64,000 nucleotides of DNA from Nitrosopumilaceae archaeon (GCA_965208905.1 OZ242365.1:992001-1056000); one strand, 5' to 3'. Counted from the stretch's first letter, positions 6,411-56,609 are shown. The notes: a model not told the origin generated them from the sequence alone. Numbers and translations: made by a program.

Positions 6411-7540
6411 GCCCTAAAACACTGGCAGGCGCCATCATACCATTCATACTGATTACCATACTTGTCATATACATAACAGGCCCCGGCTCAGACTATATCA
6501 TAATAGGTACACCACTACCTGAAGTGACACTAGAACGTATAGATTTTGTAGAGAATGAAATACAAGTTACCATACGAAATACAGGCCCAATACCCGTACA
6601 GGTAGTCCAAGCAGACGTAAATGACAGAATACAACCATCTGCTATAGAACCTGATGGAAGTTTAGAACGGTTCGAGACAGCATTGGTTCGCATACCATTC
6701 TTCTGGAATGAAGCCGAACCATACAATCTAGGCATAACCATACATGATGGTACGCGCTTTGAGAGGGAAGTAGCTGCTGCCTCGCCAGCCGTCACACCCG
6801 ACATTCAGACAACGACAAAATTTGCACTGGCAGGCGTATACATAGGTGTAATACCTGTATTCATAGGACTATTGTGGCTGCCCTTCATACGAAAATTAGA
6901 CTCTAAAAAATTGGGATTTTTTCTGGCCATCACAGTGGGCCTCTTGATATTTTTGGGAATTGATGCCATACAAGAGGCCCTTGAGGTATCAAAAGAATCT
7001 CTGGCAGGCTCCATCAACGGACCATTACTGATACTGGTTGCAGCATCGGGCGCATTTCTTGTATTGCAGTATATATCCGGACGATTCTCATCACATCGCA
7101 CAAAGATAACGGCAGCCATTCTAGTCTCCATCGGTATAGGTTTACACAACTTTGGTGAAGGGTTGGCGTTGGGGGCCGCGCTAAATTTAGGCTCGGTCGC
7201 ATTCTCTGCATCTTTGATGGTCGGCTTTGCCATACACAACACCACCGAAGGAGTGGCCATAGCCTCACCACTATCCAGACAAAAGAACATACTGCCAAAA
7301 TTAATCATATTAGGCATGGTGGCAGGCGCTCCAGCCATACTTGGCACATGGGCCGGCGGCTTTGCATACTCGCCCATTTTTATAGTAGCATTTTTGGCGG
7401 CGGGGGCTGGCGCAATATTTCAGGTTGCAATCGCAATATCTCAATGGATGTTAAAAGATAACACATATCACTCATATCAGATATGTGGAGGCATATTCTT
7501 GGGTATGATAATCATGTATGCAACTGGTATACTGGCATAG
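6407..7540 (+). CDS. ZIP-family divalent metal transporter
   Basis: GIGLHNFGEGLA and HNTTEG signature helices; multiple TM segments. Confidence 0.88.
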   Translation: MSPKTLAGAIIPFILITILVIYITGPGSDYIIIGTPLPEVTLERIDFVENEIQVTIRNTGPIPVQVVQADVNDRIQPSAIEPDGSLERFETALVRIPFFWNEAEPYNLGITIHDGTRFEREVAAASPAVTPDIQTTTKFALAGVYIGVIPVFIGLLWLPFIRKLDSKKLGFFLAITVGLLIFLGIDAIQEALEVSKESLAGSINGPLLILVAASGAFLVLQYISGRFSSHRTKITAAILVSIGIGLHNFGEGLALGAALNLGSVAFSASLMVGFAIHNTTEGVAIASPLSRQKNILPKLIILGMVAGAPAILGTWAGGFAYSPIFIVAFLAAGAGAIFQVAIAISQWMLKDNTYHSYQICGGIFLGMIIMYATGILA

Positions 7541-8124
7541 GTTCCTCCCGCAAGGACGGGTGTTGGTTGATGTGTGTTGGATAATGTTAAATACGTAATT
7601 AAACCGTACTGTATAGTGGCATCAGTAAAAAATAGCAGGGCAGTAACACGTCCATACGCAAAAAATTTGGGCATGCAACACGTGTTTGAGCATGGCAGAA
7701 GGATGGGAAGTTTGGACGCAGCTTACGTCGCAGATTACATTCTGCCATGATGCGAAAGGCATCGGATTTAATTTATGAAAAGTCCCAATTTTTGGGAGTG
7801 GAGGCACTACATATGCGTCCACACAACACATCCAAGTTGTGTGCTGCATGCAGAACCATATTAACTGGAACTTATCATAAAAAAGACTGCACCCACTGCC
7901 GTACAGTTGGCGTAGATCGTGACGTCAACGCAGTGGAGAACATACGGCGAACAAGCGCCGTATCCCGATATGGTTCGTAAGGTTTCGGCCAGTCTGGGCG
8001 AAGTCCGTCGTGGTGTGGATGTAATACTCGATCCCACACCACTCATACAGGGTTGCTGGAGCAACTGGGCCGACAGACTATCCCGCGTGGTGATGTGACA
8101 TCACCCGACTTTGCGGGAGGAACC
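7540..8124 (+). mobile_element. Non-autonomous IS6-like TIR element carrying a deleted tnpB
   Basis: Perfect 14-bp TIR GGTTCCTCCCGCAA (7540-7553 / 8111-8124); 8-bp TSD CTGGCATA (7532-7539 / 8125-8132). Confidence 0.9.
7690..7980 (+). pseudogene. tnpB: TnpB C-terminal remnant (Zn ribbon + RuvC-III)
   Basis: KFGRSLRRRLHSAMMRKASDLIYEKSQFLGV...HNTSKLCAAC...CTHC...DRDVNAVENI; N-terminus absent. Confidence 0.8.
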
Positions 8125-8175
8125 CTGGCATAGAATCATGTTTTAATTATATCATATAATCACGTATAGTATAAC

Positions 8176-8973
8176 ATGATAGATACTACCACCAAATTAA
8201 ATGATCATACAGTAAGATATCTGGATTCAAACTCAAACAAACAACCTGTTATACTACTACATGGCCTTGGTGGCTGCTCTGACAAATGGAAGTCTGTCAT
8301 AGATATACTATCTGCATCGTATCGTGTAATCGCACCAGACATCATAGGATATGGCCAAAGTGACAAACCTGTCGTAAACTACACTCCCACATACATGGTA
8401 TCGTTTGTAAAAAAGTTCATTACAGCAATAGATATTGAAAATCCACACATAGTGGGCGCCTCTCTAGGTGGGCAGGTGGCAGTACAATTTGCCGCCCGAT
8501 ATAAACAGTACATGTCAAAATTAGTATTGGTATCTCCTGCCGGCATAATGAAGCGCTCAACTCCTGCCTTGGATCAATATATTATGGCTGCATTATATCC
8601 CCGCGAAAGCAGTGTATCTCACGCCCTGCAACTTATGGAGGGTAGTGAAAGACCGCCATCTCAAACACTCATTCGACTATTCATGACTAACATGAAGCGT
8701 CCCAATGCAAAGATGGCTTTTATGTCTTCACTACTCTGCTTTAAAAATTCCAATACAATACACAGACACCTAAAGAAGGTAACGACTTCCACCTTGCTGG
8801 TATGGGGGGACGATGATCCTATAATCCCAGTATCATATGCTGGCAAGTTTACATCCGTACTACCAAACTGTACATTTACAACAATCCCTAATTGCGGCCA
8901 CACACCCTACGTTCAATATCCAGAACACTTCTGCAAGATACTCTCTGACTTTTTTGCCACACAAAAACACTAA
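8176..8973 (+). CDS. Alpha/beta hydrolase
   Basis: LLHGLGG, GASLGG nucleophile elbow, WGDDD and CGHTP. Confidence 0.9.
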   Translation: MIDTTTKLNDHTVRYLDSNSNKQPVILLHGLGGCSDKWKSVIDILSASYRVIAPDIIGYGQSDKPVVNYTPTYMVSFVKKFITAIDIENPHIVGASLGGQVAVQFAARYKQYMSKLVLVSPAGIMKRSTPALDQYIMAALYPRESSVSHALQLMEGSERPPSQTLIRLFMTNMKRPNAKMAFMSSLLCFKNSNTIHRHLKKVTTSTLLVWGDDDPIIPVSYAGKFTSVLPNCTFTTIPNCGHTPYVQYPEHFCKILSDFFATQKH

Positions 8974-9000
8974 TTTGGCCACATTACAACATCTAAACAC

Positions 9001-10251
9001 TTGACACTTCCTAGAGGTATGAAGGACATACCATACATAGAGACTCAAAATATACGATATATACAATCAAAGTTTGAGGTACTCGCCGAATCATACGGTT
9101 ATGACACAATACATCCCTCACCACTAGAGTTGCTATCCACACTAGAGACAAAGTCCGGCGAGGCCATCAAAGATGAGATATACGAGTTCCAAGACAAGGG
9201 CGGTCGACACGTGGGATTGAGATTCGATCTTACCATGGGCATAACAAGATGCATAACTACTGATCGCTCTGCATCATTACCATCAAAGATATCTAGTTTT
9301 GGAGGTGTCTTCAGATATGATGAACCCCAAAAGAATCGTTATAGATACTTTCATCAGTGGGATATTGAAGTGTACGGAAGACCTCACATATATCAGGATA
9401 TCGAAGTAATAGAGTTTACAGCGCGCTTCTTTGAGTCACTACCACTACAGGTAACCATACATATGAGCCATCGTGAACTTGTCGAGTCTCATATATGCCA
9501 TACCTTTGGCGCTACACCACATAGTGATGTTATACCCGATATGCTGCGCGCCTTAGACAAGATGCAAAAGAGATCCCGCACCGATATAGTGGCGGAGTTT
9601 GCCAAATATGATGAATCCAAACTAAACTGTATACTTGATATGGCATCCCTACACGGTACACCTGAACAGGTTGAACCAGAACTACCATCTCATATTGTAC
9701 ACCATCCAAAATGGCTACATCTCAAAGATGTAGTATCATCATTATACAATATAGGTATACACAACATACAGATAGACTTTGGTATAGTTCGAGGATTAGA
9801 CTACTATACTGGCATGGTCTTTGAGGTGTTTGGCAGTAATGATACGGCCCTGGCAGGTGGTGGAAGATATGACTCTCTACCTGGTGCCTTTGGCCGTACA
9901 GATATGGGTGCGGCAGGCGTAGCCGGTGGCGTTGAGCGCATAATATCCGAGTTGAATCGTAATGTACAAAATACATACGATGTGGCCGTAATCTATACTC
10001 CTGATACATACGATGTGGCCTCCAAACTGGCCTCTACACTACGACAGAAAGAGATGCGTGTCCGCTTTGATGTATCTGCCCGTTCGCTTAAAAAGCAACT
10101 ATCTATATCCTCACAGGACTGCCGCTATGGTATTATCATCGGCCCCTCCGAAGTCAAGGATAACACCGTAATACTGCGAGACATGAAACTACGAACACAG
10201 CATACAATACCATACGCTGAGGGAATTATCTACCTTACTGAACATACGTAA
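9001..10251 (+). CDS. hisS: Histidine--tRNA ligase (last codons supplied by inserted element)
   Basis: LPRGMKD, LRFDLT, FRYDEPQKNRYRYFHQ, VRGLDYYTG and GGGRYD. Confidence 0.95.
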   Translation: MTLPRGMKDIPYIETQNIRYIQSKFEVLAESYGYDTIHPSPLELLSTLETKSGEAIKDEIYEFQDKGGRHVGLRFDLTMGITRCITTDRSASLPSKISSFGGVFRYDEPQKNRYRYFHQWDIEVYGRPHIYQDIEVIEFTARFFESLPLQVTIHMSHRELVESHICHTFGATPHSDVIPDMLRALDKMQKRSRTDIVAEFAKYDESKLNCILDMASLHGTPEQVEPELPSHIVHHPKWLHLKDVVSSLYNIGIHNIQIDFGIVRGLDYYTGMVFEVFGSNDTALAGGGRYDSLPGAFGRTDMGAAGVAGGVERIISELNRNVQNTYDVAVIYTPDTYDVASKLASTLRQKEMRVRFDVSARSLKKQLSISSQDCRYGIIIGPSEVKDNTVILRDMKLRTQHTIPYAEGIIYLTEHT

Positions 10252-11658
10252 CATACGCGTACATTCCCAGGTGCTTCATGACGCTTGATGTTTTGGGTCG
10301 ATTGCACGCTTGATTCTCACGCCGCCGTCTGGCGTCCGGAACTGCACAAACAGGTGGCTTCCGGGTCCGGCCCATTTCACGCCTTTCGAGGGCCATTCCT
10401 TCCCCCGCGGGAACCTTCATACCGGTCCCCCGTTGAATTATATTCACCGACGCATTGCCGTCGGCGTTTGCTACATGCCCACATCCTATACACTTGAACA
10501 TCTCCCCATTTCGGTTCTCCTTGTTTGTGTAGCCGCACACACTGCACTCCTGACTCGTGCGTTTTGGATTCACTTCTACTACACGGATGCCCAGCCGCTC
10601 TGCGATAATGCGTATCTTTCGCAGTATTGCATAATGCCGAATGAACCGCATACCGCGATTCATACCCTTCTTGTGCCTGCCACCGCGCCTGCTCATGGCC
10701 TCAAGGTTGAGCTGCTCGACATATATTACATCCACGCCCTCGCATATCTTCTTGGCTAGAAGCCACTCCGCATACTCGCGGTCGTTCGCATTACCCTGAT
10801 TGTACTTTTCTCGTTTATGTTTAATTTTACACGTCGAGTTGGAGTGTTTGTTGCGGTGTGAGATGGTACGGCGCGTCTCATCATTCCATGTACGGTTCGT
10901 GCGGAATGCGGTTGCCGTGTCGTACGATATTATACACGAAGTGTTGTGGTCGAATTTGCACACGACGGTCGGATTTGTTATCCCTCTGTCTATGCCGGCA
11001 ACAACACCGGTCTTGGCGCGCCGTTCGGGTGTAGGTACGTCATATGTTATGTGCAACCGGTAGATATGGTCACACGACTTGACGTGCCCCCACGACTTTG
11101 GTGTTACACATACCAAACGGAAAGACCTTGAGCCATACAGCCAGTTGTGTGGGAATTGGTATGGCTGCTCCGCAGGCAACTCAACAACACCAAGGCCCGG
11201 CAATGACGCATGCTTGTTGTCCACATATACAGGCCGCACATCACATGATACTGCCTGTGTATTGTCAAGCTTTTTGGAGCGAAAACTCAGCTCGCCATTG
11301 CCGTACTTGTTCGAGACATCCGCAGCAGTGCGGGCTTGGTTGATGGCCGTATTTTGATATATACGCTCTACTGTTTGCAGCCACTGCACGGAACGCCTCA
11401 CCTTGGTGAACTCCTTGGAGAGGTCATATGTGGTGAGTGTGGGGTCGGCCAACAACCTCTCTACGGCCCAGTTGTACACGAACCGCTGCGAGTTCCGTAT
11501 TTTGGATATGTGACGCGTCTGAGAGCGTGTCAGGTCTATGCGGAAGCCATGTGATCTATACATACCGCTCTATACACTATAGTACTTTAAAAACCTAACT
11601 CATGAGATGGGTTTACAAGTTTGACTGTTTTTAGGTTACAGTTATAGGGATAAGTCCC
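10221..11658 (-). mobile_element. IS1595-like TIR element carrying only tnpB (element E1)
   Basis: Ends GGGAATTATC / GGGACTTATC (9/10; 14/20 extended); exact 8-bp TSD TACGCTGA (10213-10220 / 11659-11666). Confidence 0.88.
10235..11563 (-). CDS. tnpB: TnpB/Cas12f-like RNA-guided nuclease
   Basis: QRFVYNWA, RuvC-I GIDRG, RuvC-II YVEQL, TSQECSVC..CIGC Zn finger and RuvC-III NADGNAS. Confidence 0.9.
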   Translation of the reverse strand: MYRSHGFRIDLTRSQTRHISKIRNSQRFVYNWAVERLLADPTLTTYDLSKEFTKVRRSVQWLQTVERIYQNTAINQARTAADVSNKYGNGELSFRSKKLDNTQAVSCDVRPVYVDNKHASLPGLGVVELPAEQPYQFPHNWLYGSRSFRLVCVTPKSWGHVKSCDHIYRLHITYDVPTPERRAKTGVVAGIDRGITNPTVVCKFDHNTSCIISYDTATAFRTNRTWNDETRRTISHRNKHSNSTCKIKHKREKYNQGNANDREYAEWLLAKKICEGVDVIYVEQLNLEAMSRRGGRHKKGMNRGMRFIRHYAILRKIRIIAERLGIRVVEVNPKRTSQECSVCGYTNKENRNGEMFKCIGCGHVANADGNASVNIIQRGTGMKVPAGEGMALERREMGRTRKPPVCAVPDARRRRENQACNRPKTSSVMKHLGMYAYVTYVQ

Positions 11659-11680
11659 TACGCTGATATCGATAAACATA

Positions 11681-12415: not shown

Positions 12416-12970
<555 letters not shown>

Positions 12971-21389: not shown

Positions 21390-21636
21390 TACACCATATT
21401 TTGTCCTATCTTAAAAATTTTTTTCGCAACTTACTGTTGTGCATGTCTTGTACATTCTGCTGCGTATACACACAAGACGCACAATCATTAGATGTATAGT
21501 TGCACACTACAAAATTACATAGGTGATTATGCAGAAGCCTAATGACGGCAAACACCGGCTTGCATTATCCGACCATCGGATTCAATGACGCATGTCTGTT
21601 CGGATCAATCCGGCCATCCCTTCCTCCAACCCCTTC

Positions 21637-23098
21637 GGAGCTTATGCGATCAAACCAAAGTACTTTACTTTAAATATTCGTAATTGCCCATATAGGTATG
21701 TCCACAATAACACGCACAATACATGTGGCGCACAACAACGGGCAACTCCTGGGAGGTCTTCTGCACTACATACTCGCCGCGTCCAACGGTACCGCCAAGG
21801 CACTCCGTAGGGGCGTGCGGGGCAAGGAACTGAGGCGCAGGGCGGTACACCACACACGTGTGTATCAAACACGCTTTGCCGACTACATTGTATTGGATGT
21901 ATTTGGAAGTCACAAGGCATGGCGTACAAAGCAATTGACGGATAAACATGCCCGCGCGCCGCACTTTCGTAATCCGGTGGCGCAGACCGACATATTTGAG
22001 TTGGCATTTGATGATACATCAAAACGGTGGAACGGCACGCCGTCAATCCATGTAGCAGTATATGGAACGGGTCGGCAGAATAGGTCGTGGATGGTATTTC
22101 CGGTACCGCCATATGTCGTAAATGAGCTTGGCAGGCCAAACAGGACACCCAAAACCGTATCCATAAACAGGGATGAGATATTCATCACGTATCGGGAAAA
22201 TGTGCAGGATAGTAAAGCCGTAATGTGGGCAGGTGTGGATATGAATGCAAAGAACAACGCGTATTCATTCACTGATGGTACGGTAACTATTGTGGGCAAC
22301 CGAAATGGGAGTGAGTACAACAGGGCGTGTAGCAGGATATTGAAGGTGAGGCGGCGGAACGATGACCGCATCATGACAAAGTATACGGGAAAGGCATGGA
22401 AAACATACGGGAACCGCATACGCAATGATGTACATGTGGAGGCCAAAAGGTTGGCCAATGCGCGGTGTGTCGTAGGGTTTGAGACGCTGAACATCCACAA
22501 TCTGTACAACAAAAATGGTAAAATGTCGCCATATGTCCGCGGCAAGACGAAAGCGACGCTGAATACCGGCCAGAGGCAGGCTGCCCTCAAGAACGCGGCA
22601 GAGTCCGCGGGGCTACCAAGTGTGGGCGTTGAGCCGCGCAACACGTCTGCCAAATGCCACAAGTGTGGCGGAAGACTGGCGTTTCACAGTAAACGGAGCG
22701 GCGAGGTGCCGCTGCGCAACATGCGCTGCGGGGGTGTGTGCAGGGCAATGCGGGAGAGGGATGCCAACGCCAGCACCAACATATTATTGCTTACAATACG
22801 GAAATTAATGGGTGATTCTGTCGTTTCGACTGGAACCATCACGACGTCCGAGCTGCTGCAACTACTCAAAGTGGTGGTTGCCAATCGCACAGTCCCGCAT
22901 CGTAAGAAATTAATCGACATCATGCGGCTCTTAGAGGGTCGTAGCGCAAACACCTTGTGGTGTTTGTCGGGGGCGCACAAACCAAAACACCGTAATTACG
23001 TCGACGGTGACTCCATGGGTGTATTTGGGGTGGGCGATGCCGGCCGGAACGGTCCGGGGCCGCCCAATGCTGCCAAGTTGTGATTATGCATAATCTCT
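21637..23098 (+). mobile_element. TIR-type tnpB element E2 (same family as E5; ends degenerate)
   Basis: Left end GGAGCTTATGCGATCAAACCA aligns with the E5 end AGAGTTTATGCGTAATCGAATCA; right end ATTATGCATAATCTCT; no clear TSD. Confidence 0.65.
21698..23083 (+). CDS. tnpB: TnpB-like RNA-guided nuclease
   Basis: RuvC-I GVDMN, RuvC-II GFETL, NTSAKCHKC..CGGVC and RuvC-III RERDANAS; full-length paralogue of 36511-37914. Confidence 0.85.
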   Translation: MSTITRTIHVAHNNGQLLGGLLHYILAASNGTAKALRRGVRGKELRRRAVHHTRVYQTRFADYIVLDVFGSHKAWRTKQLTDKHARAPHFRNPVAQTDIFELAFDDTSKRWNGTPSIHVAVYGTGRQNRSWMVFPVPPYVVNELGRPNRTPKTVSINRDEIFITYRENVQDSKAVMWAGVDMNAKNNAYSFTDGTVTIVGNRNGSEYNRACSRILKVRRRNDDRIMTKYTGKAWKTYGNRIRNDVHVEAKRLANARCVVGFETLNIHNLYNKNGKMSPYVRGKTKATLNTGQRQAALKNAAESAGLPSVGVEPRNTSAKCHKCGGRLAFHSKRSGEVPLRNMRCGGVCRAMRERDANASTNILLLTIRKLMGDSVVSTGTITTSELLQLLKVVVANRTVPHRKKLIDIMRLLEGRSANTLWCLSGAHKPKHRNYVDGDSMGVFGVGDAGRNGPGPPNAAKL

Positions 23099-26801: not shown

Positions 26802-28516
26802 GGGTGTGTCCCACAGGTAAATATCCAAAAACAGTGAATGGTGTATGCCAATAACGGGAATCAAATATTAAATAGTAAAACATAGTATAGTACTCTATAA
26901 AAAGACGATGTGGTGACACCGTAGCAGTATCAATGCCACACGGCAAGGTGTACAATCCTGCAAAATTCCGTGAACTAACAGGGTCTCGCAGACCACCCAA
27001 ATACGACCCAGATGATATACTGGCATCCGCTTTACAATATGCAGTACACAAGACCGGCCTGGGGTATCATCTGTGGTCTGAGTTCATCAGGGATTTTCCA
27101 AAAGTGCGGGAAGCGTATAGTGGTGGAGAATTAAAAGAGTATGATGCCGGGGTTAAGAAGATATACAGATTGCTCAAGCACCGTGATAATAAATACATGG
27201 CGCAGTTCGCGTTAACTATGAAAGATGAGTGTGAGGCTAAAGTGCGTGCATACTGTATAAGACGTGCGCAAGACCCCAACGCGCGGCGGCCAAAATGCAC
27301 CAACCCAATACTGCGGCAGAATGCTGGGTCTTGTAGGATATATGGTCAAGGTTTTCGATGTAGGTTATCTGACGCACCGAATAAACCACTACATTCATCA
27401 CCATACGTGGTACTGCGATTTCCAATAATCCCACATAAACATACCATGGAGGTACAACTCACGCCCTACATGGTGGAAAAACTAGCTACTGCCGTAAGTG
27501 TGGGGGCCGTTACCGTGACAGATAAGACCATATCTATAGCATATGAGCCGCAACCCATCACACCAGTACAACCCAAAGGTATCACAGGTATGGATGTCAA
27601 CAAAGTACAGCATGTTACGGCTGACACTAACGGGAGTGTAGAGCGTGTTCCAAATATGGCGCTTGAAGCCGCTCAGACACGACGGCAGAAACTCGCGAAT
27701 TTAGGAGTAACTGGCGGCAAACCGAAGAGTAAACAATCCCAAAAACCAAAGAAGCGTACTCTGCCAAAGCACGTCAAACACGTAGGCCGTAGGCCGAAGA
27801 ATAAAAAGCGTCATGATGAACGTGTGAGTCGTTGTGAACGCGCCCACATAAACACCAGATACAACAATCAAAAGAAGGACTGGTTGTTCAAATTAATGCA
27901 TGGGTTGGCTTCCCTGGGCTTTGTGTTGGCGTTGGAGGAGCCAACCATCGACAGGATGATGAAAAAGAGTAACAAGAATATGTCAAACGAGACGCGCGAC
28001 TTGTTGAAGATGGGGCTGAGTCAGGGTATAATATGGGCGGTGGCTAAAAGCGTATACGGAAAGCATGGTCTTCCCGTGATTGGTGTTGTTGCCAAAGGTA
28101 CTAGTTCTACATGTCCCACATGTAATGGAAAGTTATGGGAGCCAGAGTACGGCATGAAAATATGGAAAAAGTGGAGGCGTATTAAGGGGTGTGGGGTTTG
28201 TTTATATCATATCGACAGGGATGATGTCGCAGCCATCAATATTGTACGGCGCGGCATCCTCAAGTATTGTAAACCGGCAGCCGATTCTAATCGGTGGGTG
28301 GCCGGGGATTGGGAGCAGTTGGTCCAACCATTATTGGACCATACGGTCTTGTGGTTTCCGCAGGACCGTGAAGGGCGGCATCCTAAAGGGGAGGTGATGA
28401 ACTCAATGAGTGATGATTTACCATCCCTGGACGACCACCTGGATGTATCCAATTGTGCTGCTGGTGTAGCGCTGCCGGAGGAGACTCCGGTGGCTTTATA
28501 CTAGTGGGACACACCC
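26802..28516 (+). mobile_element. TIR element carrying only tnpB (element E3), 9-bp TSD
   Basis: Perfect 13-bp TIR GGGTGTGTCCCAC (26802-26814 / 28504-28516); exact TSD TGATGCAAC (26793-26801 / 28517-28525). Confidence 0.92.
26933..28504 (+). CDS. tnpB: Large (523 aa) TnpB-like nuclease
   Basis: RuvC-I GMDVN, RuvC-II LALEEP, TSSTCPTC..CGVC and RuvC-III DRDDVAA; basic insertion after RuvC-I. Confidence 0.85.
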   Translation: MPHGKVYNPAKFRELTGSRRPPKYDPDDILASALQYAVHKTGLGYHLWSEFIRDFPKVREAYSGGELKEYDAGVKKIYRLLKHRDNKYMAQFALTMKDECEAKVRAYCIRRAQDPNARRPKCTNPILRQNAGSCRIYGQGFRCRLSDAPNKPLHSSPYVVLRFPIIPHKHTMEVQLTPYMVEKLATAVSVGAVTVTDKTISIAYEPQPITPVQPKGITGMDVNKVQHVTADTNGSVERVPNMALEAAQTRRQKLANLGVTGGKPKSKQSQKPKKRTLPKHVKHVGRRPKNKKRHDERVSRCERAHINTRYNNQKKDWLFKLMHGLASLGFVLALEEPTIDRMMKKSNKNMSNETRDLLKMGLSQGIIWAVAKSVYGKHGLPVIGVVAKGTSSTCPTCNGKLWEPEYGMKIWKKWRRIKGCGVCLYHIDRDDVAAINIVRRGILKYCKPAADSNRWVAGDWEQLVQPLLDHTVLWFPQDREGRHPKGEVMNSMSDDLPSLDDHLDVSNCAAGVALPEETPVALY

Positions 28517-32214: not shown

Positions 32215-33686
32215 GGGAATTATATACAAAAGTACACAGCCTCGGCTGTACACTCATGCCTTTTCTGACGGCTCTTCTGTATTGAATGGAGCATAGAAGG
32301 TGTTGGTTTGTAGCCCTCCTTATGCCCCGGCTGTCTTAGGACGACGTTCCCCGCCGCCCTATACAGGATATTCCAGGCGGCATTGACATCCGCGTGAAAC
32401 ACTCTGGTACAATTAGTGCAAATGAATTTGTCGCGTGTGACACGCGACTTAGCATCCACCGTACCACACACATGGCACGTCTGGCTCGTGTATTTGGCAG
32501 ATGCCCCCAACAGCGGTATGTTGTGTATCTCACACCACTGCGCAAGCTTGCGCAGGAACTCCCCGACACGGTTCTCCCGCATTGAACGGTTCATGGAGCG
32601 TTTGTAATTCCCACCATGCGTGGTCATGTCCTTTACGGAGAGCGACTCGACCACGACTGCGTCCACACCATTAGTTATCTGCGCAATCGTCTGATTTATG
32701 GTGTTCGCAGCTATGTTGTTGGCCTTCCTGTATAGCCGCTTTATTTGGTCATTCAATATATGCCACTTCCGGCCATGCCGTGTCTTGTGGTCACGCAAAC
32801 TCTTTAGCGCGTCAATCTCCCGCAGGATTGCTCTATGGCGGGTGTTGTGTATTGTAACGTTGCCATTTGTGTCGACAGTGACGGCGAGATGCTTGCCGCC
32901 CACATCAACACCCCGCATTACACCAGTATTGCGGTGCGACTCTACCGGTTCATGTATGGCAATATACAGCTCAAACATGTGGTCTGACGGCTTTGTATGC
33001 TTGTCCACCCGTTTGGTGACATCAACTATCTTGAATGAGCGCATGCCCCATGATGTATTGATGGGCTTGGCGGTCTCTACAATACCATATCCGGGGATAT
33101 GTATGGTGTGCCCACCTTTTCGTACAGGCGGTGTAACGGAACAAAGTATGATGCGGCCGTCTTTGCGGCGGTACGGCGCGTGGTCTGAGCTGTCATCTAT
33201 AACCCTTCTACATGCGACGGAGGCATCCTGTATGGCGCCCCTACCAAACGATGTGGGGCACTCGCGCAGCCATGTATGTTTGGCGCGCCACCCCGTAAGC
33301 TGTTTGTGCATGCCGTACTTTAATGCCCTCTTTGACGACCCAAAATCATATGTATGGTAGTCATAGTTCAGCGTACCGGACGTAACACCCTTCAACGTGT
33401 TCGGTAGTTTGAAGGGCTGTAGTATGTCCACTACCACCCTCTCCATGTATTCGCCGCCAAACAAATACTCTGATACGGCGCGGTTGTACACATATCTTGA
33501 CGCATGATTCGTGCGGTGCGCCCACTCTGCAAACAACACATCCATTCGTAGCGGTACCTTGACTATCCGTATCATAATGTATAATACGGTATGTTGGTAT
33601 TTAAGAGGAGTTGCTGTATGGACGCGTTCCGTGGTTCAGGTATTAACTCTCAGAATCGAGGTTGTGTACTTTTGTATATGATTCCC
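32215..33686 (-). mobile_element. IS1595-like TIR element carrying only tnpB (element E4)
   Basis: 30-bp TIR GGGAAT(T/C)ATATACAAAAGTACACA(G/A)CCTCG, 28/30 identical (32215-32244 / 33657-33686); no TSD retained. Confidence 0.9.
32220..33575 (-). CDS. tnpB: TnpB/Cas12f-like RNA-guided nuclease
   Basis: SRYVYNRA, RuvC-I GVDVG, RuvC-II VVESL, TSQTCHVC..CTNC and RuvC-III HADVNAA. Confidence 0.92.
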   Translation of the reverse strand: MIRIVKVPLRMDVLFAEWAHRTNHASRYVYNRAVSEYLFGGEYMERVVVDILQPFKLPNTLKGVTSGTLNYDYHTYDFGSSKRALKYGMHKQLTGWRAKHTWLRECPTSFGRGAIQDASVACRRVIDDSSDHAPYRRKDGRIILCSVTPPVRKGGHTIHIPGYGIVETAKPINTSWGMRSFKIVDVTKRVDKHTKPSDHMFELYIAIHEPVESHRNTGVMRGVDVGGKHLAVTVDTNGNVTIHNTRHRAILREIDALKSLRDHKTRHGRKWHILNDQIKRLYRKANNIAANTINQTIAQITNGVDAVVVESLSVKDMTTHGGNYKRSMNRSMRENRVGEFLRKLAQWCEIHNIPLLGASAKYTSQTCHVCGTVDAKSRVTRDKFICTNCTRVFHADVNAAWNILYRAAGNVVLRQPGHKEGYKPTPSMLHSIQKSRQKRHECTAEAVYFCI

Positions 33687-35204: not shown

Positions 35205-35756
35205 GCATCTATCTTGGACCCTACTTGCAGCAAGTGGTATGTGCTAATATGTTGGGGGGTTTGATGTGTTGCTGTCATGAGAATATTATATCCGGCACTT
35301 GGCTGAAAAGACTTGACACATTCGTCCATGTTTGGAATATATAGTCTCTATCCATATATTATTGTCTTCGTGATTGGTATGGATGGATGTCCTACTAACA
35401 AATAGTACTGCGGCAGCTAGATATACAATGGGGTGAGCCACTCTACAAGCGACTTGGTGAGCCTATATCATTACTGCTCAGGATGGCAGACAGTGGTTCT
35501 ACTCGGTTCGCTGGACACCTCACCGTTCACATATACAAGATGAGTGAGGTGTATCCATCTAGGGAGTTCCAGATGTTAAACTACAGGGCCAAGATAGGTG
35601 GCCTGCGAAGCGTCAAGCATGGACTAAAGTCGAAGGTGTGGTGTCTGTGAAGGCGCGCATCATTCGACTTTGGGATGATGCATAAGATGTCGTATCAATC
35701 GTGTTTGTGACAGAACCTAACAGGCTATATTAGCTCTAATCTGAGGTTTACACATA

Positions 35757-36505: not shown

Positions 36506-37980
36506 AGAGTTTATGCGTAATTGCACAACTTGGCAGCATTGGGTGGTCCCGGCCCGTTCTGGCCGGCACCGCCCACCCCGGTACAGCCCATCGGCTCACC
36601 GCCGACGGAATTCTGGCGTTCCGGTTTGTGCGCCCCCGACAAATGCCATTCGGCATCTGCACTACGACTCTCTAACAGCCGCATGATGTTAAGAAGTGTA
36701 ATTCTCCGACCATGCGTGAGTGTGCGGTCGGCGGCCGCCTCTTTCAGCAGCCGTGTTATGTGGTATAGTGTGGTGTTTGATGATATAGTGGTATTACACA
36801 TCAGAGCCAAAATGGTACGAAATAGTATGTTGGCACCCGCGTTGGCATCCCGTTCCCTAATTGTACGACATGTATAGCACCACATGTCGCGGGTCGGTAT
36901 TTTACCGGTATTGGTCCCAATATGTTTTAGATCTCCGCCACATTTGAGACATTTCGCGGACGTATTTCGTGGTTCGATGCTTATATGCGGCAGACCCTCG
37001 GACTCGGCTGCGTTTTTGAGTGCATTCTGTCTCTGGCCCGTATTCAGTGTGGATTTTGTTTTGCCACGGATAAATGGTGATATTGTATAGTTTTTGGTGT
37101 ACAGTCGGTGTATGCTCAATGTTTCATGCCCTATGCCGTATCCGGCATTGGCCATCTTCCGGGCTTCCACACATACATCATTATGGATGCGGTTTTTGTA
37201 CACACTCCATGCCCTGTTTGTGTATTTTGTCATAATGCGGTTATCGTTACGCCGCTTCACCTTTAGCATCTTGCTGTGTGCCTTGTTGTATTCACGTGCA
37301 TTGCGGTTGGGCCGCATAACTACAGTGCCATCAGCGAATGCATAGGTGTTGTTTTTGGCATTCATATCCACACCGGCCCAGGATATGGGCTCGCTATACG
37401 GAACGTCTTCCTTGTATGTAATGTATATCTCATTATATCTTAGTAGTACAGTCTTTGGTATTCTACCAGGCTTGGTAAGCTCATCCACTACATATGGTGG
37501 TACAGGGAAGGCCAGCCATGGCTTATCTGGACGGCCCCTACCGTATATTGGTACATGTATTGATGGTGTGCCATTCCATCGTTTTGATGTATCATCAAAT
37601 GCCAGCTCGAACCTGTCAGTCTGCGCCACAGGGTTGTGGTAGTGTGGGGCACGTACATGCACATTAACCAACTGATTCGTACGCCATGCCTTGTAGTTTC
37701 CATGCACGCTTTGTATTATATAGTCGGCGAAGCGTGAGTGGTATACGCCAGTACGGTGCACCGCCATACGATATAGTTTCTTGCCGCGCACACCCTTGCG
37801 TAATACCTTCGCAGCATGGTTGGACGCAGCCCCCACATAATGTAACAAACCACCCAAAAGATGTCCACTGTCATGTGTTACATGGATGGTGCGCATTATT
37901 GTGCCCATACACATGATGTATAGCTTATGGTATTTATATATACGGTACTGTACATCATGATTCGATTACGCATAAACTCT
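36506..37980 (-). mobile_element. TIR element carrying only tnpB (element E5), 3-bp TSD
   Basis: Perfect 16-bp TIR AGAGTTTATGCGTAAT (36506-36521 / 37965-37980); TSD GTT (36503-36505 / 37981-37983). Confidence 0.9.
36511..37914 (-). CDS. tnpB: TnpB-like RNA-guided nuclease
   Basis: GVDMN, IGHETL, NTSAKCLKC..CYTC and RERDANAG. Confidence 0.87.
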   Translation of the reverse strand: MCMGTIMRTIHVTHDSGHLLGGLLHYVGAASNHAAKVLRKGVRGKKLYRMAVHRTGVYHSRFADYIIQSVHGNYKAWRTNQLVNVHVRAPHYHNPVAQTDRFELAFDDTSKRWNGTPSIHVPIYGRGRPDKPWLAFPVPPYVVDELTKPGRIPKTVLLRYNEIYITYKEDVPYSEPISWAGVDMNAKNNTYAFADGTVVMRPNRNAREYNKAHSKMLKVKRRNDNRIMTKYTNRAWSVYKNRIHNDVCVEARKMANAGYGIGHETLSIHRLYTKNYTISPFIRGKTKSTLNTGQRQNALKNAAESEGLPHISIEPRNTSAKCLKCGGDLKHIGTNTGKIPTRDMWCYTCRTIRERDANAGANILFRTILALMCNTTISSNTTLYHITRLLKEAAADRTLTHGRRITLLNIMRLLESRSADAEWHLSGAHKPERQNSVGGEPMGCTGVGGAGQNGPGPPNAAKLCNYA

Positions 37981-45506: not shown

Positions 45507-45514
45507 GAGATGGC

Positions 45515-45854
45515 GGGATTGTTGCGTAATTCGATCCTGGCACCACTGAAGCCCAACCAATAGATTTTTTGATCGTTGATCCCTTACACTCGACAATGAA
45601 TAGATGACCGGACTATTGGAAATACTACCATCTGCATTATACTGGACAACCGCCGCCGGTTCGGCAAGATCCGGACCATCACCTGAAACATCAAGGTGCT
45701 GAACCGACTCAAGTGTGCTCGGATACGTGAGATGGATATGCCATCCTACGGCATGGTGTCATGTGCGTGACCGTACAAGTTAGTATGTTCCACCAATGAA
45801 ACCACGGCGGGGCACATGCGAAAACAAGATCAGATGGAGTTACGCAACAACCCC
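45515..45854. mobile_element. MITE/IS remnant with IS903-like TIRs
   Basis: TIR GGGATTGTTGCGTAATTC / GGGGTTGTTGCGTAACTC (16/18); internal IKVLNRLK..MPS resembles a transposase C-terminus; no TSD. Confidence 0.65.
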
Positions 45855-48520: not shown

Positions 48521-48590
48521 ACGTGCGCGTCAACCCCACCTTACTGAGTGCATGTACTCACATATACACTTTTAAATTGTATTGTATGGA

Positions 48591-48670
48591 GAGTTAGTGT
48601 CGTAACTCCTCCTGAACCAGCAAAAATTGGGCAAATTTTACGCCTAGAATTTAGGTTATGACACTAACTC
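48591..48670. mobile_element. 80-bp MITE
   Basis: TIR GAGTTAGTGTC(G/A)TAAC; 8-bp TSD TGTATGGA (48583-48590 / 48671-48678). Confidence 0.85.
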
Positions 48671-51555: not shown

Positions 51556-51629
51556 TGTTGTAGTATATGAAAATTATGGGAATTATATAGTTTGTAACAA
51601 ACGAATATAAGGCAGAATCCCCCCCCCGT

Positions 51630-52994
51630 ATGGCAGGCATTAAGAATAGAACCATATTCACAGGGGATAATCTAGAGATATTACGTGGCTTTCCAGACGA
51701 ATTTGTAGATTTGATATATCTAGACCCACCGTTTAACTCCAAACATAACTATGCCGCTCCAATAGGTTCAAAGGCAGCCGGGGCCGCATTCAAGGATACG
51801 TGGAATCTAAGTGATATTGACTTGGCATGGTGGGGCGAGATCCAATGTACGAGTCCAACTGTATACAAGGTGCTTGAGATGGCCCGTGCAACGGCGGGAA
51901 AGTCAGCAATGTCGTATTTGATTTACATGGCAATACGCATATTGGAGTTACATAGAGTTTGCAAATCAACAGGTTCATGTTATATTCACTGTGATTCGAC
52001 TATGTCCCACTATTTGAAGATGGTACTTGATGCAATATTTGGCATTAAGAATTTTCGCAATGAGATACTCTGGAAACGGTTTAGTGCGCATAATGATGGC
52101 CGAAGGTATGGCAAGGTAACTGATACTCTATTATTCTATGCTAAGACATGTACACATACATGGAATAGAGTTTATACTCCATACTCAGATGAATATATAC
52201 AATCAAGTTACCGCGATGAGGATGAACTGGGCCGTTACACGCATAGAGCCTTAACAGCAGAAGGGCTATCGGGGGGAGGGTATGAGTATGAATTTCATGG
52301 ACATCATCGTATTTGGAAGAGATCTTTGGAATCCATGCAGCGATTAGAAAGTGAAGGAAAAATACACTTTCCGAAAAAGAGTGGAGGTGTGCCTAGATAC
52401 AAGATATATCTTAAAGATGCTCTAGGCATACCTTTACAAAATATTTGGACAGACATACCCATTGTAGGCGGTAATGAAAAACTACATTACCCAACTCAAA
52501 AACCCCTCGCCCTACTGGAACGTATTATCAAAGCATCAAGTAATGAGGGGGATATTGTATTGGATCCATTTTGTGGATGTGCTACAGCTTTGAGCGCGGC
52601 AGAGAAGTTAGATCGGCAATGGATAGGTATAGACATATCTACAAAAGCGTATGATTTGCTCAAAGACCGTCTTGTCAGAGAGGCGGGCCTTGACAAGTAC
52701 ACTAAAGGGGCGGGTATACTAATACACCGCACCGACATTCCAATACGCAAGGGCAGGCGGTCTAAAGACATCAAAGACACTCTATACGGTAAACAGAGGG
52801 GGCGGTGCAATCTCTGCCCTCACTGGTTTGAGTACAGACAAATGGACGTGGATCATATCATACCCAAGTCCAAGGGTGGGGCAAATGATGATGCAAACTT
52901 ACAGTTGTTATGCAACAACTGTAACAAGATCAAGGGTAATCGCACTATGGCAGAGGCAAGGGCAATACTCAAAGAAAGAGGGCTTATCGAGTAA
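51630..52994 (+). CDS. N6/N4 DNA methyltransferase fused to C-terminal HNH endonuclease
   Basis: IYLDPPF, YPTQKP and VLDPFCGCAT; CNLC..DHIIPKSKGG..NLQLLCNNCN. Confidence 0.9.
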   Translation: MAGIKNRTIFTGDNLEILRGFPDEFVDLIYLDPPFNSKHNYAAPIGSKAAGAAFKDTWNLSDIDLAWWGEIQCTSPTVYKVLEMARATAGKSAMSYLIYMAIRILELHRVCKSTGSCYIHCDSTMSHYLKMVLDAIFGIKNFRNEILWKRFSAHNDGRRYGKVTDTLLFYAKTCTHTWNRVYTPYSDEYIQSSYRDEDELGRYTHRALTAEGLSGGGYEYEFHGHHRIWKRSLESMQRLESEGKIHFPKKSGGVPRYKIYLKDALGIPLQNIWTDIPIVGGNEKLHYPTQKPLALLERIIKASSNEGDIVLDPFCGCATALSAAEKLDRQWIGIDISTKAYDLLKDRLVREAGLDKYTKGAGILIHRTDIPIRKGRRSKDIKDTLYGKQRGRCNLCPHWFEYRQMDVDHIIPKSKGGANDDANLQLLCNNCNKIKGNRTMAEARAILKERGLIE

Positions 52995-53251
52995 TGGGGT
53001 TAAGGGAGTTGGGGGTATTAATTGGCTTAATTGTTGTAATGGTCATAGTGGCTATTTTAACTGCACTATGTGAATTTATGTCATCACAATCAAATTTAGA
53101 AGGTCTGTGGGCCGAGACTCATGAACGAAATTTATCAATTATCTGTTTTGTTGCTAACATGTTTAAGAATGACACAGCGGTGGAACAATCGCAAAATATT
53201 ATCACCATACAAAGGTATGATAACACACAAACCCACAATCAGTCTTGCTAA
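52994..53251 (+). CDS. Small hypothetical membrane protein (passenger)
   Basis: Start coupled to the MTase stop; N-terminal TM; overlaps an opposite-strand ORF. Confidence 0.35.
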   Translation: MGLRELGVLIGLIVVMVIVAILTALCEFMSSQSNLEGLWAETHERNLSIICFVANMFKNDTAVEQSQNIITIQRYDNTQTHNQSC

Positions 53252-53414
53252 ATCATCTTGCCACCACTCTATTTGTGACGGCCCGCCAATCTGAACTCCC
53301 AAGATAGGAATTGTTAGGAATAAACCTAAGGCCAATCCAAAAAATATTACTGGTTTGCGTATGGATGTTGATCCCATAATTAAGTTAAAGTTAAAGATCA
53401 AATAAGTGTTACTG

Positions 53415-54359
53415 TTATGCAATCAACGCTTCATAAGTAAGCCTCTTTCCCATCATACCTCTAACTAGACTTACCATCATGTCTATTGTGTCTAGATTCC
53501 GAATGTTTAGCCGTCCTGCAAACTCGTTAACATACCTGTGTAGATGCTTTGCCGATATGTGATGAAACGTGCCGTAATAGCCACGCTTTAACAAAGCCCA
53601 GAAAGACTCTATGCCGTTGGTATGCGCCATGCCGTTTACATATTGACTAACGGAATGGTTAACCGTTTCATGATTAGGTAGGTTTTGGTATGCCCTACTC
53701 TCGTCCGTATAATGGGTTGCTCCCGTCTTGGTGTTTTGTTCAATAAATTTACCAAGACGGGCAGCGGTTGTATCCGGTACGGGTTCGGCTCTGATGTTAC
53801 CTGTCTTTCTATCTTTGATTCCAACCACGGCGGTTTTGTTGGCGCCGCCTTGACTGTGTGGGGTTTTCTTGTCTGCATGCTTGTTGGATTCCTTGCCTCC
53901 GAAATATGCCTCGTCAATTTCGACTGGGCCTTCCATCTTGTCTGTACCTGCCAGTGTATGCCATGATTCACGTAACCTTTGTACCATGAACCATGCCGAC
54001 TTTTGGGTTATGCCCAAATCCCTATGCAGTTTCATTGAACTAATACCCTTAACGTTGGTCATGAACTGATATGTTGCAATGGCCCATTGTTGATATGTCA
54101 TATGGGATTGTTCCATGATTGTTCCTACCTTGACACTAAACCGCTTGTGGCAATTCCCCACACCTGCACAGTAATACGGCATCTTTTTGTACTTTGTTTT
54201 TTTGATGTTGGTATTACCACAAAACGGGCAGCATGGCTTATCGTCCCAAATTGTACGTTCAAACCACTTTTCGGCGGCATCATCATCAGGAAATATCTTG
54301 AATAGTTTTGCAAGCGTTATTCCTTCACGGTGACTTTTACCGGGTGCTTGTTGGCTCAT
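53415..54359 (-). CDS. IS1595-family DDE transposase, intact
   Basis: CPFC Zn ribbon, VEIDEAY, YTDE, TVNHS and HTNGIESFW..LKR. Confidence 0.93.
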   Translation of the reverse strand: MSQQAPGKSHREGITLAKLFKIFPDDDAAEKWFERTIWDDKPCCPFCGNTNIKKTKYKKMPYYCAGVGNCHKRFSVKVGTIMEQSHMTYQQWAIATYQFMTNVKGISSMKLHRDLGITQKSAWFMVQRLRESWHTLAGTDKMEGPVEIDEAYFGGKESNKHADKKTPHSQGGANKTAVVGIKDRKTGNIRAEPVPDTTAARLGKFIEQNTKTGATHYTDESRAYQNLPNHETVNHSVSQYVNGMAHTNGIESFWALLKRGYYGTFHHISAKHLHRYVNEFAGRLNIRNLDTIDMMVSLVRGMMGKRLTYEALIA

Positions 54360-54427
54360 AGTATACCTTAGAAACATGGATTATATAAAGATTGTTACAA
54401 AGTATATAATTCCCAAAATTATGTCCG

Positions 54428-55368
54428 CTAGTCATTTGACTTCGCCTCCATCCAGTTGGGGCCCTTTGCCTTGGTCTTCTCGGCCGCTTTCTTGGCCGAG
54501 AACGCCTTGAGCGAAGTCTCGTAGTTGGCTATGTCCAGCGAAAAGTGGAGTCGCCTCTTGTTGTAATGCTGGATATACTCGGGCAGGCTCTCGTAGTGAC
54601 CTATCTCTTCCTCGATGGTTCTGTGGAACCGCTCAAGCTTCCCGTTCATCTGGGGGTGGCATGGTCTTGAGTTCATCAACTCGATACCCCTACCCAAGAG
54701 CTCCTCCTCGAACGCGGTGGACTTCCAGGATCCTTTGGGGTTGCCCTTGCGCATGCCCACAAAGCAAGATCTATTGTCCGACAGGATGGTAGCCGGCGTT
54801 CCGAACCGCCTAATTGTTTACTGGAGCGCCACCACGGCGTTCTCCGAGGTAGCCTAAGTGAACCGGCTCGCCCCGGTCACGCATCTTGAGGCATCGTCCA
54901 GGAATGTGATGAGACAAAGCCCACTCATACGCGAACTCTTCATGACGTGCCAGTTGGTGTACCACATGGAGTTGGAGTGCTTACGCTCGTATCGCACCCA
55001 CTTATGCTTTCGTGACTTTGCTTCGGATGGTGCGACTCGCTCACTCTCCTTCATAATCAGGATACTCGCTGGTAGATTATATTATGACCCGCTCTGCGCA
55101 GGCTTATTGCCGTGCGTACCACGCCTACCTCCTCCAACTGGTAGGCGTCCAGTACCAACTGTACCTCATCCGGCGACGGCGATAGCAGGGCGGGCCTGCC
55201 CGGAGTGCGCGGAATAGGCGCGGATCCGGTCTTGCGGAACTTGGCGTACGGCCTCCGAATGTGCCTTGATGTCACTCCGAGCTCGGCGGCCACCACAGAA
55301 GATCTCCTGCCTTTCTCAAGTTGGTTTATGGCGTACCGGATGGACTTTGCCGTAAGACGCTTTGCCAT
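54428..55368 (-). pseudogene. IS481-family transposase pseudogene
   Basis: Three fragments (55057-55368, 54854-55054, 54428-54760) homologous to 44544-45482. Confidence 0.88.
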
Positions 55369-55452
55369 ATTTTTTCTTGATCGATACAGCGTATAATGCT
55401 CCTTTATGGTGCGCTTGATCTTAGTCGGACCTAATTTCCGTACAATAGAACA

Positions 55453-55820
55453 AGGTCAGGATAGGGGAGAATTATTAAATCAGTACGAATTCACTAGAAC
55501 CGTAAAATGACTGCAAAGGCATACCGCAACAGGATAACAAATATCAAATATCAATTAGGGTGAGTACTAAACATGCATGCAAGCGTGTGTAACGGAGGTA
55601 ATTAATGGGCAAAAAAGAGACACTACTTTTTAAGAGAGTGTTGGAATATATAGATCACGAGGCAAACGGTGAGGTTAGCTCGGACGGTTTAAGTCGTTAA
55701 TGACTATTTGGGAGCCGGTCATGAGAGCACCATGAGTGTAATCATTTATCCCCTTCTGACCAGTGATAATATTGGAAAATGATTTTTTCAAGCATAATAA
55801 TTTATGTATATGCTCAGGTA
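55453..55820. repeat. Right arm of long inverted repeat
   Basis: Reverse complement of 50858-51049 plus 51379-51555. Confidence 0.9.
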
Positions 55821-56609
55821 GGTTCCTCCTGCAAGGACTAGTGGTGATCTAAATGACTTAGATTCGGACCAAAATTCGCCTCAAACCGGACATGCGCAGG
55901 TCGTCATAATTCATTTTTGGCCGGTTTTTACCAAGTCCCACTCAGATGGGGCATATGCGGAGGCAAAAATCCATACTGTATCATGGTGTCGGGCATTCGC
56001 GGTACATTACGCAGCGGATACGGCGTTCTGTATGAGCGTCAGCCACTTGTCTGTACCCTGTATGTCTATGCCGGCAGAGCCCCACTTGTCCCCCACGCAC
56101 GGCGGCTTAATGGTCTTGGCATACTCGTCTGCCACACTGGAATAGTGCTCCAGGGTTCTGGTTATGCTGTCCACGTGTACCTCCACTCCCAGATGTTTGA
56201 GCGTCACCTGAATGTTGGGCACCATCTGGGTTGCGGCAGCATATACCAGTCAGAAATGTAATCCGTGTGGCTACACCCACAAGGACAACCGGGATGGTAG
56301 AAAATTCTTGTGTAAACGGCGTGGCCATACACGTCATGCTGACTGTAATGCGGGCGCCAACATAGAGGATGCGGGACTAAAAAAGTTGGGTCCAGAGGCC
56401 ATGCATGGTCAACTAAACTTACGAAACTTGTCGGACCATGCCGGCAACACCCATGTTAAGGAGTATCTGGGCGTGAGGGTTCTTGCATCAACTCCCCTGA
56501 GAAACGTCAAGCACAGACTGGGAAACGAGATGCTCTACGCACCGTCGCTCTCTGGCGTGACGTGTAATGTATTGTAGATGCGGGAACCCCCGTGTTTGCA
56601 GTAGAAACC
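55821..56609. mobile_element. Deleted IS6-type element containing a transposase relic (-) and a tnpB relic (+)
   Basis: TIR GGTTCCTCCTGCAA / GGTTTCTACTGCAA. IS6-like LGVEVHVDSITR..GDKW and GIDIQGTDKWLTLIQNA at 56007-56225; TnpB YTSQKCNPCG..HADCNAGANI at 56225-56577. Confidence 0.8.

Follow-up and report, generated by a model that had tools for sequence, protein, structure and literature searches.

TnpB genes between DDE-type transposon ends in a Nitrosopumilaceae archaeon

Introduction

TnpB is believed to earn its place in IS605 and IS607 elements by repairing their scarless excisions. Its association with DDE transposons was described by Altae-Tran et al. (2023, PNAS; PMC10691335), who set out six DDE-associated TnpB branches (DDE-1 to DDE-6) with inverted terminal repeats, reported solo TnpBs that have the same ends and are moved in trans by transposases, and concluded that the function of TnpB can be transferred from one transposon to another; IS630 alone is named in the main text of that paper, and its supplements may list IS1595 or IS6 cases. 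The DDE partners listed in the relevant part of a 2026 review are ISL2, IS630 and IS1031, such cases being called rare in prokaryotes, and the same source raises the question of why TnpB would help cut-and-paste or replicative DDE transposons (PMC13565253). In the Fanzor elements of insect viruses, according to the preprint of Yoon et al. (10.1101/2023.08.09.552727), the terminal inverted repeat (TIR) and the target-site duplication (TSD) form the end of the guide-RNA scaffold. Here we analyse a 64,000-nucleotide stretch of DNA from a Nitrosopumilaceae archaeon (GCA_965208905.1, OZ242365.1:992001-1056000; the window), part of a 2.21-Mb single-contig genome, which holds five TnpB genes in elements of this general kind. 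The elements are bounded by TIRs, 8, 9 or 3 bp of target are duplicated on insertion and no copy has a transposase, while transposase-bearing elements with the same termini and TSD length exist in the genome or in sister species. We conclude, at a probability of roughly 0.8, that these are non-autonomous DNA transposons with DDE-family ends whose only gene is an intact TnpB, presumably accompanied by a guide RNA, and that they would be moved by transposases acting in trans.

As in the main text of Altae-Tran et al., TnpB lies within inverted repeats, the ends of the solo elements are nearly identical to those of transposase-bearing elements and the 3' end of tnpB is near the transposon end; the window elements differ in having no transposase in cis and in their partners (IS1595, IS6-like and two IS5-type families), and TSDs, empty sites, genus-wide absence of Y1 transposases and a TSD-adjacent motif are documented here. 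With Fanzor elements they have in common a non-autonomous architecture of TIRs and TSDs, a nuclease as the only gene and independent captures by different transposons, whereas here the host is archaeal, the TnpBs are of ordinary size and autonomous partners are identifiable. The system works like Fanzor elements without being a Fanzor member, the genes flanking the window elements being archaeal housekeeping genes such as those for eIF-6, HisRS and HMG-CoA synthase. Like the IS1341 group of the IS200/IS605 family, each element carries a single tnpB in 1.4-1.7 kb with its 3' end at the right end; the family itself, in the accounts on which we draw, has hairpin ends, a Y1 transposase and neither TIRs nor TSDs, whereas here TIRs and TSDs occur in a genus without Y1. 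The likeness to IS1595, IS6 and IS5 insertion sequences (ISs), and to their cargo-bearing derivatives and miniature inverted-repeat transposable elements (MITEs), lies in the terminal nucleotides and TSD lengths, which are those of transposase-bearing copies in the genus, and the difference lies in a TnpB module that stands in place of the transposase.

TnpB elements and their borders

The window contains five full TnpB elements (E1 to E5) and three relics:

7540..8124, + strand: M1, relic of TnpB family F1 with IS6-like TIRs; a 585-bp internal-deletion derivative of a ~1.6-kb GGTTCC-type TnpB element
10221..11658, - strand: E1, IS1595-type-ended TnpB element; tnpB 10235-11563
21521..23098, + strand: E2, AGAG-type (DDE_Tnp_4-type ends) TnpB element; tnpB 21698-23083
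26802..28516, + strand: E3, IS5-type-ended TnpB element (GGGTGTGTCCCAC); tnpB 26933-28504
32215..33686, - strand: E4, IS1595-type-ended TnpB element, TIR GGGAATTATATACAAAAGTACAC; tnpB 32220-33575
35408..35623, no strand assigned: short TnpB relic, 40-43% identical to residues ~108-186 of family F3
36506..37980, - strand: E5, AGAG-type TnpB element; tnpB 36511-37914
55821..56609, + strand: relic with GGTTCC-type ends, holding an IS6-like transposase fragment and the 3' part of an F3 tnpB

All five open reading frames (ORFs) that had been predicted to encode TnpB are present and match PF07282 (Cas12f1-like TNB) above the cut-off, two of them with an additional OrfB_IS605 Pfam match. The proteins are 442-523 residues long, the ordinary size of TnpB, and in a five-way alignment show only 18-30% identity to that of E1; the catalytic and zinc-binding residues said to be kept are invariant in this alignment (D192, E283 and D368; C340, C343, C358 and C361, in E1 numbering). 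All five have the split RuvC domain with a D-E-D triad and the Zn-finger TNB domain that define TnpB, and the E4 protein aligns with the solved TnpB structure 8iaz across the RuvC and Zn-finger motifs. A tblastn search with all genomic TnpBs recovered each of the three predicted relics. M1 retains a fragment of the TNB domain at 7765-7944, and its positions 1-172 and 154-585 match ~14 full genomic copies; in the relic at 55821-56609 the transposase fragment occupies 56079-56249 (- strand) and the tnpB part begins at ~56212.

The elements had been proposed to lie between TIRs, and such repeats were found for M1 (26 nt, 88% complementary), E3 (26 nt, 81%), E4 (31 nt, 94%, with the true ends at 32215 and 33686) and E5 (16/16 nt, 100%). 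The inverted repeat of E1 is weak (14/20 matching, by eye) and the left TIR of E2 is degenerate. Each TSD claimed for the window is likewise present: 8 bp for E1 (TACGCTGA, at 10213-10220 and 11659-11666), 8 bp for M1 (CTGGCATA), 9 bp for E3 (TGATGCAAC) and 3 bp for E5 (GTT). E2 has no TSD. The window copy of E4 also lacks one, with 3 mismatches in 8; here the cause is a rearrangement of its right flank with respect to the sister species. The IS1595-type end motif GGGAATTAT occurs at chance frequency (18 matches, 18.1 expected) and the GGTTCC-type motif GGTTCCTCCCGCAA far more often than chance (5 against 0.24 expected); since GGGAATTAT is no commoner than chance, the argument is built on pairing, copy borders and TSDs instead of motif counts.

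Copies of each element were sought by BLAST against the whole genome. In the multi-copy families homology ends exactly at the repeats, so that other copies of each tnpB keep the TIR borders, and among the genomic copies of window elements no TIR pair without tnpB was seen apart from deletion derivatives. Sequences adjoining each TIR pair on the outside were then compared by script, and a 20-bp shift of the flank served as control. For E4-type elements 11 of 17 had a perfect 8-bp TSD and one more had a single mismatch (shifted control 0/17), the window copy being among the failures; GGTTCC-type elements gave 12/21 perfect 8-bp TSDs and two with one mismatch (control 0/21). TSDs were perfect in all four E1-type elements (8 bp), in both E3-type elements (9 bp) and in 5/7 AGAG-type elements (3 bp), one of these seven being a second way of pairing the same end. 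Other species of the genus had perfect 8-bp TSDs at 5/7 E4-like and 10/12 E1-like loci.

In the sister species G005, whose flanks are 92-98% identical to the window, precise empty sites were found for three of the five elements (E1, E3 and E5), each with a single copy of the TSD, no element and no TIR. The E1 site reads ...ACCATACGCTGATATCGATAG... with one TACGCTGA copy, and a further genome (G008) is likewise empty; at the E3 and E5 sites the two flank matches in G005 overlap by exactly 9 and 3 bases. As the empty sites contain no TIRs, tnpB did not enter pre-existing MITEs. At the E4 locus the element and 36 unmatched bases (33687-33722) of the window correspond to 95 bp in G005, indicating that this flank has been rearranged. 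E2 coincides with an inversion breakpoint between the window and G005 and the flank to the right of E4 has been replaced, so that TnpB elements mark sites of rearrangement.

Occurrence in the genome and genus

The genome as a whole has 75 TNB matches, 74 of them above the cut-off, and its TnpBs form 8 protein families and one singleton at identities of at least 60%. Close relatives of the E4 TnpB (E<=1e-20) occur in 8/9 other genomes of the genus and in 0/21 genomes outside it; a search of five other genomes at E<=1e-60 gave no F1-type elements. For F3-like loci an exact-seed TIR finder located the ends in 5/14, of which 3 were usable.

The usual TnpB transposases, which the elements had been said to lack, were sought across the genus. 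No Y1 (HUH) TnpA was detected in this genome or in any of ten genomes of the genus, by a search that was positive in 6/14 control reference genomes. A serine-recombinase (resolvase) match was absent from this genome and occurred once among the ten, in another genome. The IS200/IS605 features (no TIR, no TSD, hairpin ends, Y1) are thus replaced by TIRs and TSDs in a genus with Y1 in 0/10 genomes, and the serine-recombinase TnpA without TIR or TSD by which IS607 elements are recognised is not found in this genome.

Partner transposases

Autonomous partners were sought for the four end types, and for each there is an element in the genus that bears a transposase and agrees with it in termini and TSD length, namely 8 bp for IS1595, 8 bp for IS6-like, 9 bp for IS5 DUF772/DDE_Tnp_1 and 3 bp for DDE_Tnp_4 elements. 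TSD length tracks end type in TnpB elements and partners alike, and TnpB lies between inverted repeats common to DDE-transposase elements, the arrangement by which DDE-associated TnpBs are defined.

For the IS1595 type the window itself contains a transposase-bearing element:

51578..54414, - strand: autonomous IS1595-family element; transposase 53415-54377 (-), cargo 51630-52994 (+)

Its TIR is GGGAATTATATA(G/C)TTTGTAACAA and its 8-bp TSD AAAATTAT stands at 51570-51577 and 54415-54422. The genome has four such IS1595 elements, all with GGGAATTAT.. TIRs and 8-bp TSDs. The first 13 nt of E4 are identical to those of two of them, GGGAATTATATAC is shared with the window element and a further IS1595 copy (copy C), and an IS1595 copy in G005 (L037) has 19/22 terminal nucleotides in common with E4, counted by eye. 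IS1595 elements with ..ATCG.. ends have GC-rich TSDs, like the E1 type, and those with ..ATATAC ends have AT-rich TSDs, like the E4 type. E1- and E4-type elements have the termini and 8-bp TSD of DDE_Tnp_IS1595 elements, as expected of non-autonomous IS1595 derivatives, and the element at 51578-54414 is a candidate for their trans-acting partner. Its cargo is a fused N6/N4 DNA methylase-HNH endonuclease gene; in a second copy of this element, at genome 1770047-1772736, the cargo is split into two ORFs.

The GGTTCC-type partner is a 1451-bp element of G009 (L097:3944-5394) with an 8-bp TSD and a 387-aa transposase that matches DDE_Tnp_IS240 (IS6-like) at 3.6e-08; perfect 8-bp TSDs flank 6/10 copies of this element with ends found. 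In the present genome we found a frameshifted IS6-like pseudogene copy at 926302-927837 and the fragment in the relic at 55821-56609. A TnpB element and an IS6-like pseudo-element stand 8 bp apart at genome 924780-927837 with a single outer 8-bp TSD (TTAAACTC), as if both had moved as one compound unit. The IS6 family is described, in the parts of the source used here, as having GG tips, 8-bp repeats, clades with long transposases of 1230-1460 bp and conserved cTGTt/caaa motifs in the inverted repeats (PMC7986276). GG tips and 8-bp TSDs are present in the GGTTCC type, whose ends differ from this description in that GGTTCCTCCCGCAA lacks the cTGTt motif; a GGTTCC variant in G006, GGTTCTTGTGCAAACG, is nearer to it. 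The GGGTGT-type partner, corresponding to E3, is a 1242-bp IS5 DUF772+DDE_Tnp_1 element of G006 (L103:301-1542) with TIR GGCTGTGTCCCAC and a perfect 9-bp TSD in 3/9 copies, and the AGAG-type partner is a 1991-bp DDE_Tnp_4 element of G004 (L100:301-2291) with TIR AGACCTTATGCGTAAT and the TSD ATT. We take the DDE_Tnp_4 partner to correspond, possibly, to the ISL2/IS1031 type.

Several other candidates were rejected as partners. An rve transposase within a GGTTCC-type element (L001) belongs to a separate 1044-bp IS with its own TIRs and a 15-bp TSD. The IS630-type genes that lie in two E3-like G005 elements were inserted there and interrupt tnpB. IS1595 genes adjoining tnpB in G001 (L040) and G006 (L049) are separate elements that abut the end of a TnpB element and do not form composites with it; both are inserted within a few bases of that end, which may reflect a preference for sites beside related ends. 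The 12 DDE_Tnp_IS240+SWIM paralogues of this genome have no GGTTCC ends, and an 893-bp GGTTCC-ended element of G007 (L095) encodes a 261-aa ORF with no Pfam match. The latter lies ~64 bp from many contig ends in a fragmented assembly and is for that reason probably high-copy and recent.

Exchange of ends and selection on TnpB

Repeated capture of TnpB, as put forward in the original prediction, is supported by a maximum-likelihood tree of 30 TnpBs (unrooted, no IS605-type outgroup), on which the end types are polyphyletic. IS6-like ends fall on two distant clades, AGAG ends on two and IS1595 ends on three, one of which is sister to family F2, and F2 itself (identities of at least 60%) has at least four further TIR types, with 8-bp TSDs where readable. 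The tree shows that TnpB lineages have exchanged ends, although it does not give the direction of exchange; judged from these sequences, the joining of TnpB modules to different end types on several occasions is supported. The F2 TIR types are GG(C/A)RCTGTCAAATC.., TG(G/A)GCTGGTAAC.., TGGGCTGTGACG.. and GGAACTGTCC.., with examples outside the window at genome 768370, 377253, 2210129 and 403381.

The ratio of nonsynonymous to synonymous substitution (dN/dS) among paralogous tnpB copies is 0.14-0.29 in six families, which suggests that TnpB stayed functional in the lineages that went on transposing. The tnpB stop codon of every one of the five window elements falls 5-15 nt short of the downstream end (14 nt inside the outer end in E1, 5 nt in E4 and E5), and in 15/18 related IS1595-type elements it lies exactly 5 nt from it, so that the end repeat doubles as the last part of the coding sequence. 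Presumably the guide-RNA scaffold also has its 3' end there. Conservation in the E4-type element is highest over the last ~270 nt, and RNAalifold places stems at the right end with double changes in 12/48 pairs (no significance test), a folding prediction that is suggestive only of a guide-RNA structure. Two sponge metatranscriptome runs contain short contigs on E4-type sequence at 90-99% identity, covering small shares of the stretch, and one contig crosses the right end into the flank of another copy; such contigs cannot show ends, strand or expression, may stem from DNA carry-over and give support neither way.

A one-sided motif beside the TSD

To compare the flanks, insertions were oriented by tnpB, bases were read by eye from the printed flanks and Fisher tests were applied. 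Directly 5' of the TSD there is a conserved motif, confined to the side upstream of tnpB. In E4-like insertions G stands at -1 upstream in 16/17, against 3/17 on the other side (p=1e-5) and 3/10 sides of autonomous IS1595 elements (p=9e-4). GGTTCC-type insertions have T at -2 upstream in 14/14, compared with 5/14 on the other side (p=6e-4) and 6/12 sides of autonomous IS6-like elements (p=0.004). E5-type insertions show TAC 5' of the TSD in 4/5 cases and E3-type insertions TTTR in both. Families F1 and F3, which have the same ends, differ at -1, with A in 8/8 and 1/6, respectively (p=0.003), and TT occupies -3/-2 at a further three F3-like insertions from other species.

If the guide consists of the TSD and flank and the target is the empty allele, this motif sits where the transposon-adjacent motif (TAM) must lie, and we tentatively suggest, at somewhat less than even odds, that its position is that of the TAM. 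On this reading the predicted TAMs would be approximately ATNG (E4), WTA with C after it (F1), TTG or TTA (F3) and TAC (E5). The fuller proposal, in which the motif is the TAM, TnpB uses the TSD and flank as guide and cuts unoccupied alleles, and only TAM-adjacent, correctly oriented insertions persist, is at best equally tentative and in our estimate also falls short of an even chance. In a bolder version TnpB would bias the site and orientation of integration by the DDE transposase.

Interpretation and alternatives

In the proposed mechanism the ends belong to IS1595, IS6-like and two IS5-type families, and IS1595, IS6-like, IS5 and DDE_Tnp_4 transposases would move the TnpB elements in trans. 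The guide would be read from the TSD plus flank, TnpB would cut element-free alleles at the TAM followed by TSD and flank, and repair from an occupied copy would restore or spread the element. Cutting of empty alleles would explain both the purifying selection on tnpB and the motif 5' of the TSD on one side. That tnpB genes were captured by DDE families and are carried as non-autonomous cassettes is supported by the empty alleles, the TIR-bordered copies and the matching DDE elements.

An alternative origin for such loci would be the insertion of a classical IS200/IS605 (IS1341-type) tnpB into pre-existing MITEs, the TIRs and TSDs being those of the older host. Solo tnpB elements 1.4-1.7 kb long are, in the review literature as far as it describes them, characteristic of the IS1341 group, and MITE-sized derivatives with the same ends exist, M1 among them; this origin is nevertheless already contradicted by empty alleles that lack the TIRs too, all full copies run from TIR to TIR with deletion derivatives as the sole tnpB-less pairs, the stop codon falls inside the TIR or within 15 nt of it and none of the ten genomes has Y1, so that we regard it as scarcely credible. 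It could also be argued that the elements are autonomous, with TnpB or an unrecognised host or element factor making the staggered cuts and TSDs, and that the likeness to DDE ends is due to convergence or shared ancestry. The excess of TnpB copies (74) over the few intact partner transposases in the genome points in this direction, as does an orientation-specific insertion motif that is hard to explain by a symmetric TIR-binding transposase. Yet TSD length follows end type exactly as in the matching DDE elements (8, 8, 9 and 3 bp), one TnpB family occurs with several end types and TnpB is described as dispensable for transposition in the relevant part of the review, which makes autonomy very improbable.

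The alternative that deserves most weight, although we still consider it unlikely, accepts mobilisation by DDE transposases and holds that TnpB is a passive or domesticated passenger (e.g., a regulator or toxin) that contributes to neither the retention nor the spread of the element. Frequent exaptation of TnpB is reported in the main text of Altae-Tran et al. (PMC10691335), the E1-like family has no TAM-like motif, and IS1595 and IS6-like elements also hold unrelated cargo such as the methylase-HNH gene and restriction-modification genes. A passenger of this kind is difficult to reconcile with the intact catalytic triad and Zn finger of all five proteins, the low dN/dS among paralogues in 6 families, an ORF end fixed 5 nt from the terminus in most of the related elements and a motif that is both one-sided and family-specific.

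Several observations weigh against the reading of these loci as DDE-mobilised elements maintained by an active TnpB. Transposition, RNA and cleavage are predicted and none was observed, and the matches between TnpB elements and transposases are based on 13-19 shared terminal nt and on TSD length rather than on an assay. The IS6-like partner in this genome is a pseudogene only, and only other species yielded partners for the 9-bp and 3-bp types. IS6-family elements are described, in the part of the source consulted, as moving via cointegrates (PMC7986276), a route without any excision that TnpB could repair. Identity is 78-92% for most copies, which implies that most of the activity is old, and the TnpB tree carries long-branch warnings in addition to having no outgroup. 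As for the motif, no upstream motif was seen in the E1-like family, the control sets are small, at 5 IS1595 and 6 IS6-like elements, and bases were counted by eye, and the C at -1 of AGAG-type insertions is also found at autonomous elements. Rfam at gathering threshold identified only a tRNA, and no known guide-RNA family, in the whole window.

The original prediction knew of no description of a multi-family system of this sort in archaea and allowed for earlier reports; the principle was published in 2023 (PMC10691335), and what appears to be new, relative to the main text of that paper, are the IS1595 and IS6-like partner families. At the level of titles and the opening lines of abstracts, in a collection with few subscription journals, we found no publication that describes this system among those on TnpB with IS1595, with TIRs and TSDs in archaea or with non-autonomous DDE transposons and TAMs, and none at all on TnpB of Nitrosopumil*. 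A whole genus with TnpB exclusively on DDE-type ends likewise appears to be new, as do the direct proof by TSDs and empty sites and the one-sided TSD-adjacent motif. The genus presents TnpBs on DDE-type ends, at up to 74 per genome, under purifying selection and with ends swapped repeatedly. It amounts to four natural experiments in parallel, in each of which the partner transposase is identifiable, the TSD defined and the TAM predicted, and it offers compact archaeal TnpBs with a predictable guide position. If the proposed role of TnpB is true, the genus would be a natural model, in prokaryotes, for the coupling of RNA-guided homing with DDE transposition that forms TSDs, spanning four transposase families, and it is tempting to see in it a living analogue of the step from TnpB to Fanzor.

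Other mobile elements in the window

Three further kinds of element were noted in the window. The 1044-bp rve-type IS mentioned above (window 44463-45511; L001) is present in ~15 copies at 99.7-100% identity, with a 15-bp target duplication in the one copy inspected, and one copy interrupts a GGTTCC-type TnpB element. Two small inverted-repeat elements at 45515-45854 and 48590-48671 have arms (GGGATTGTTGCGTAATTCGATC and AGAGTTAGTGTCGTAAC) that resemble AGAG-type ends, and from this resemblance may be MITEs of the DDE_Tnp_4 family. An IS630-type element of 1110 bp at 49572-50681, with a TA duplication, has five genomic copies that are 100% identical, which indicates recent activity, and one of these copies splits an E4-type TnpB element at genome 1972621-1975198.

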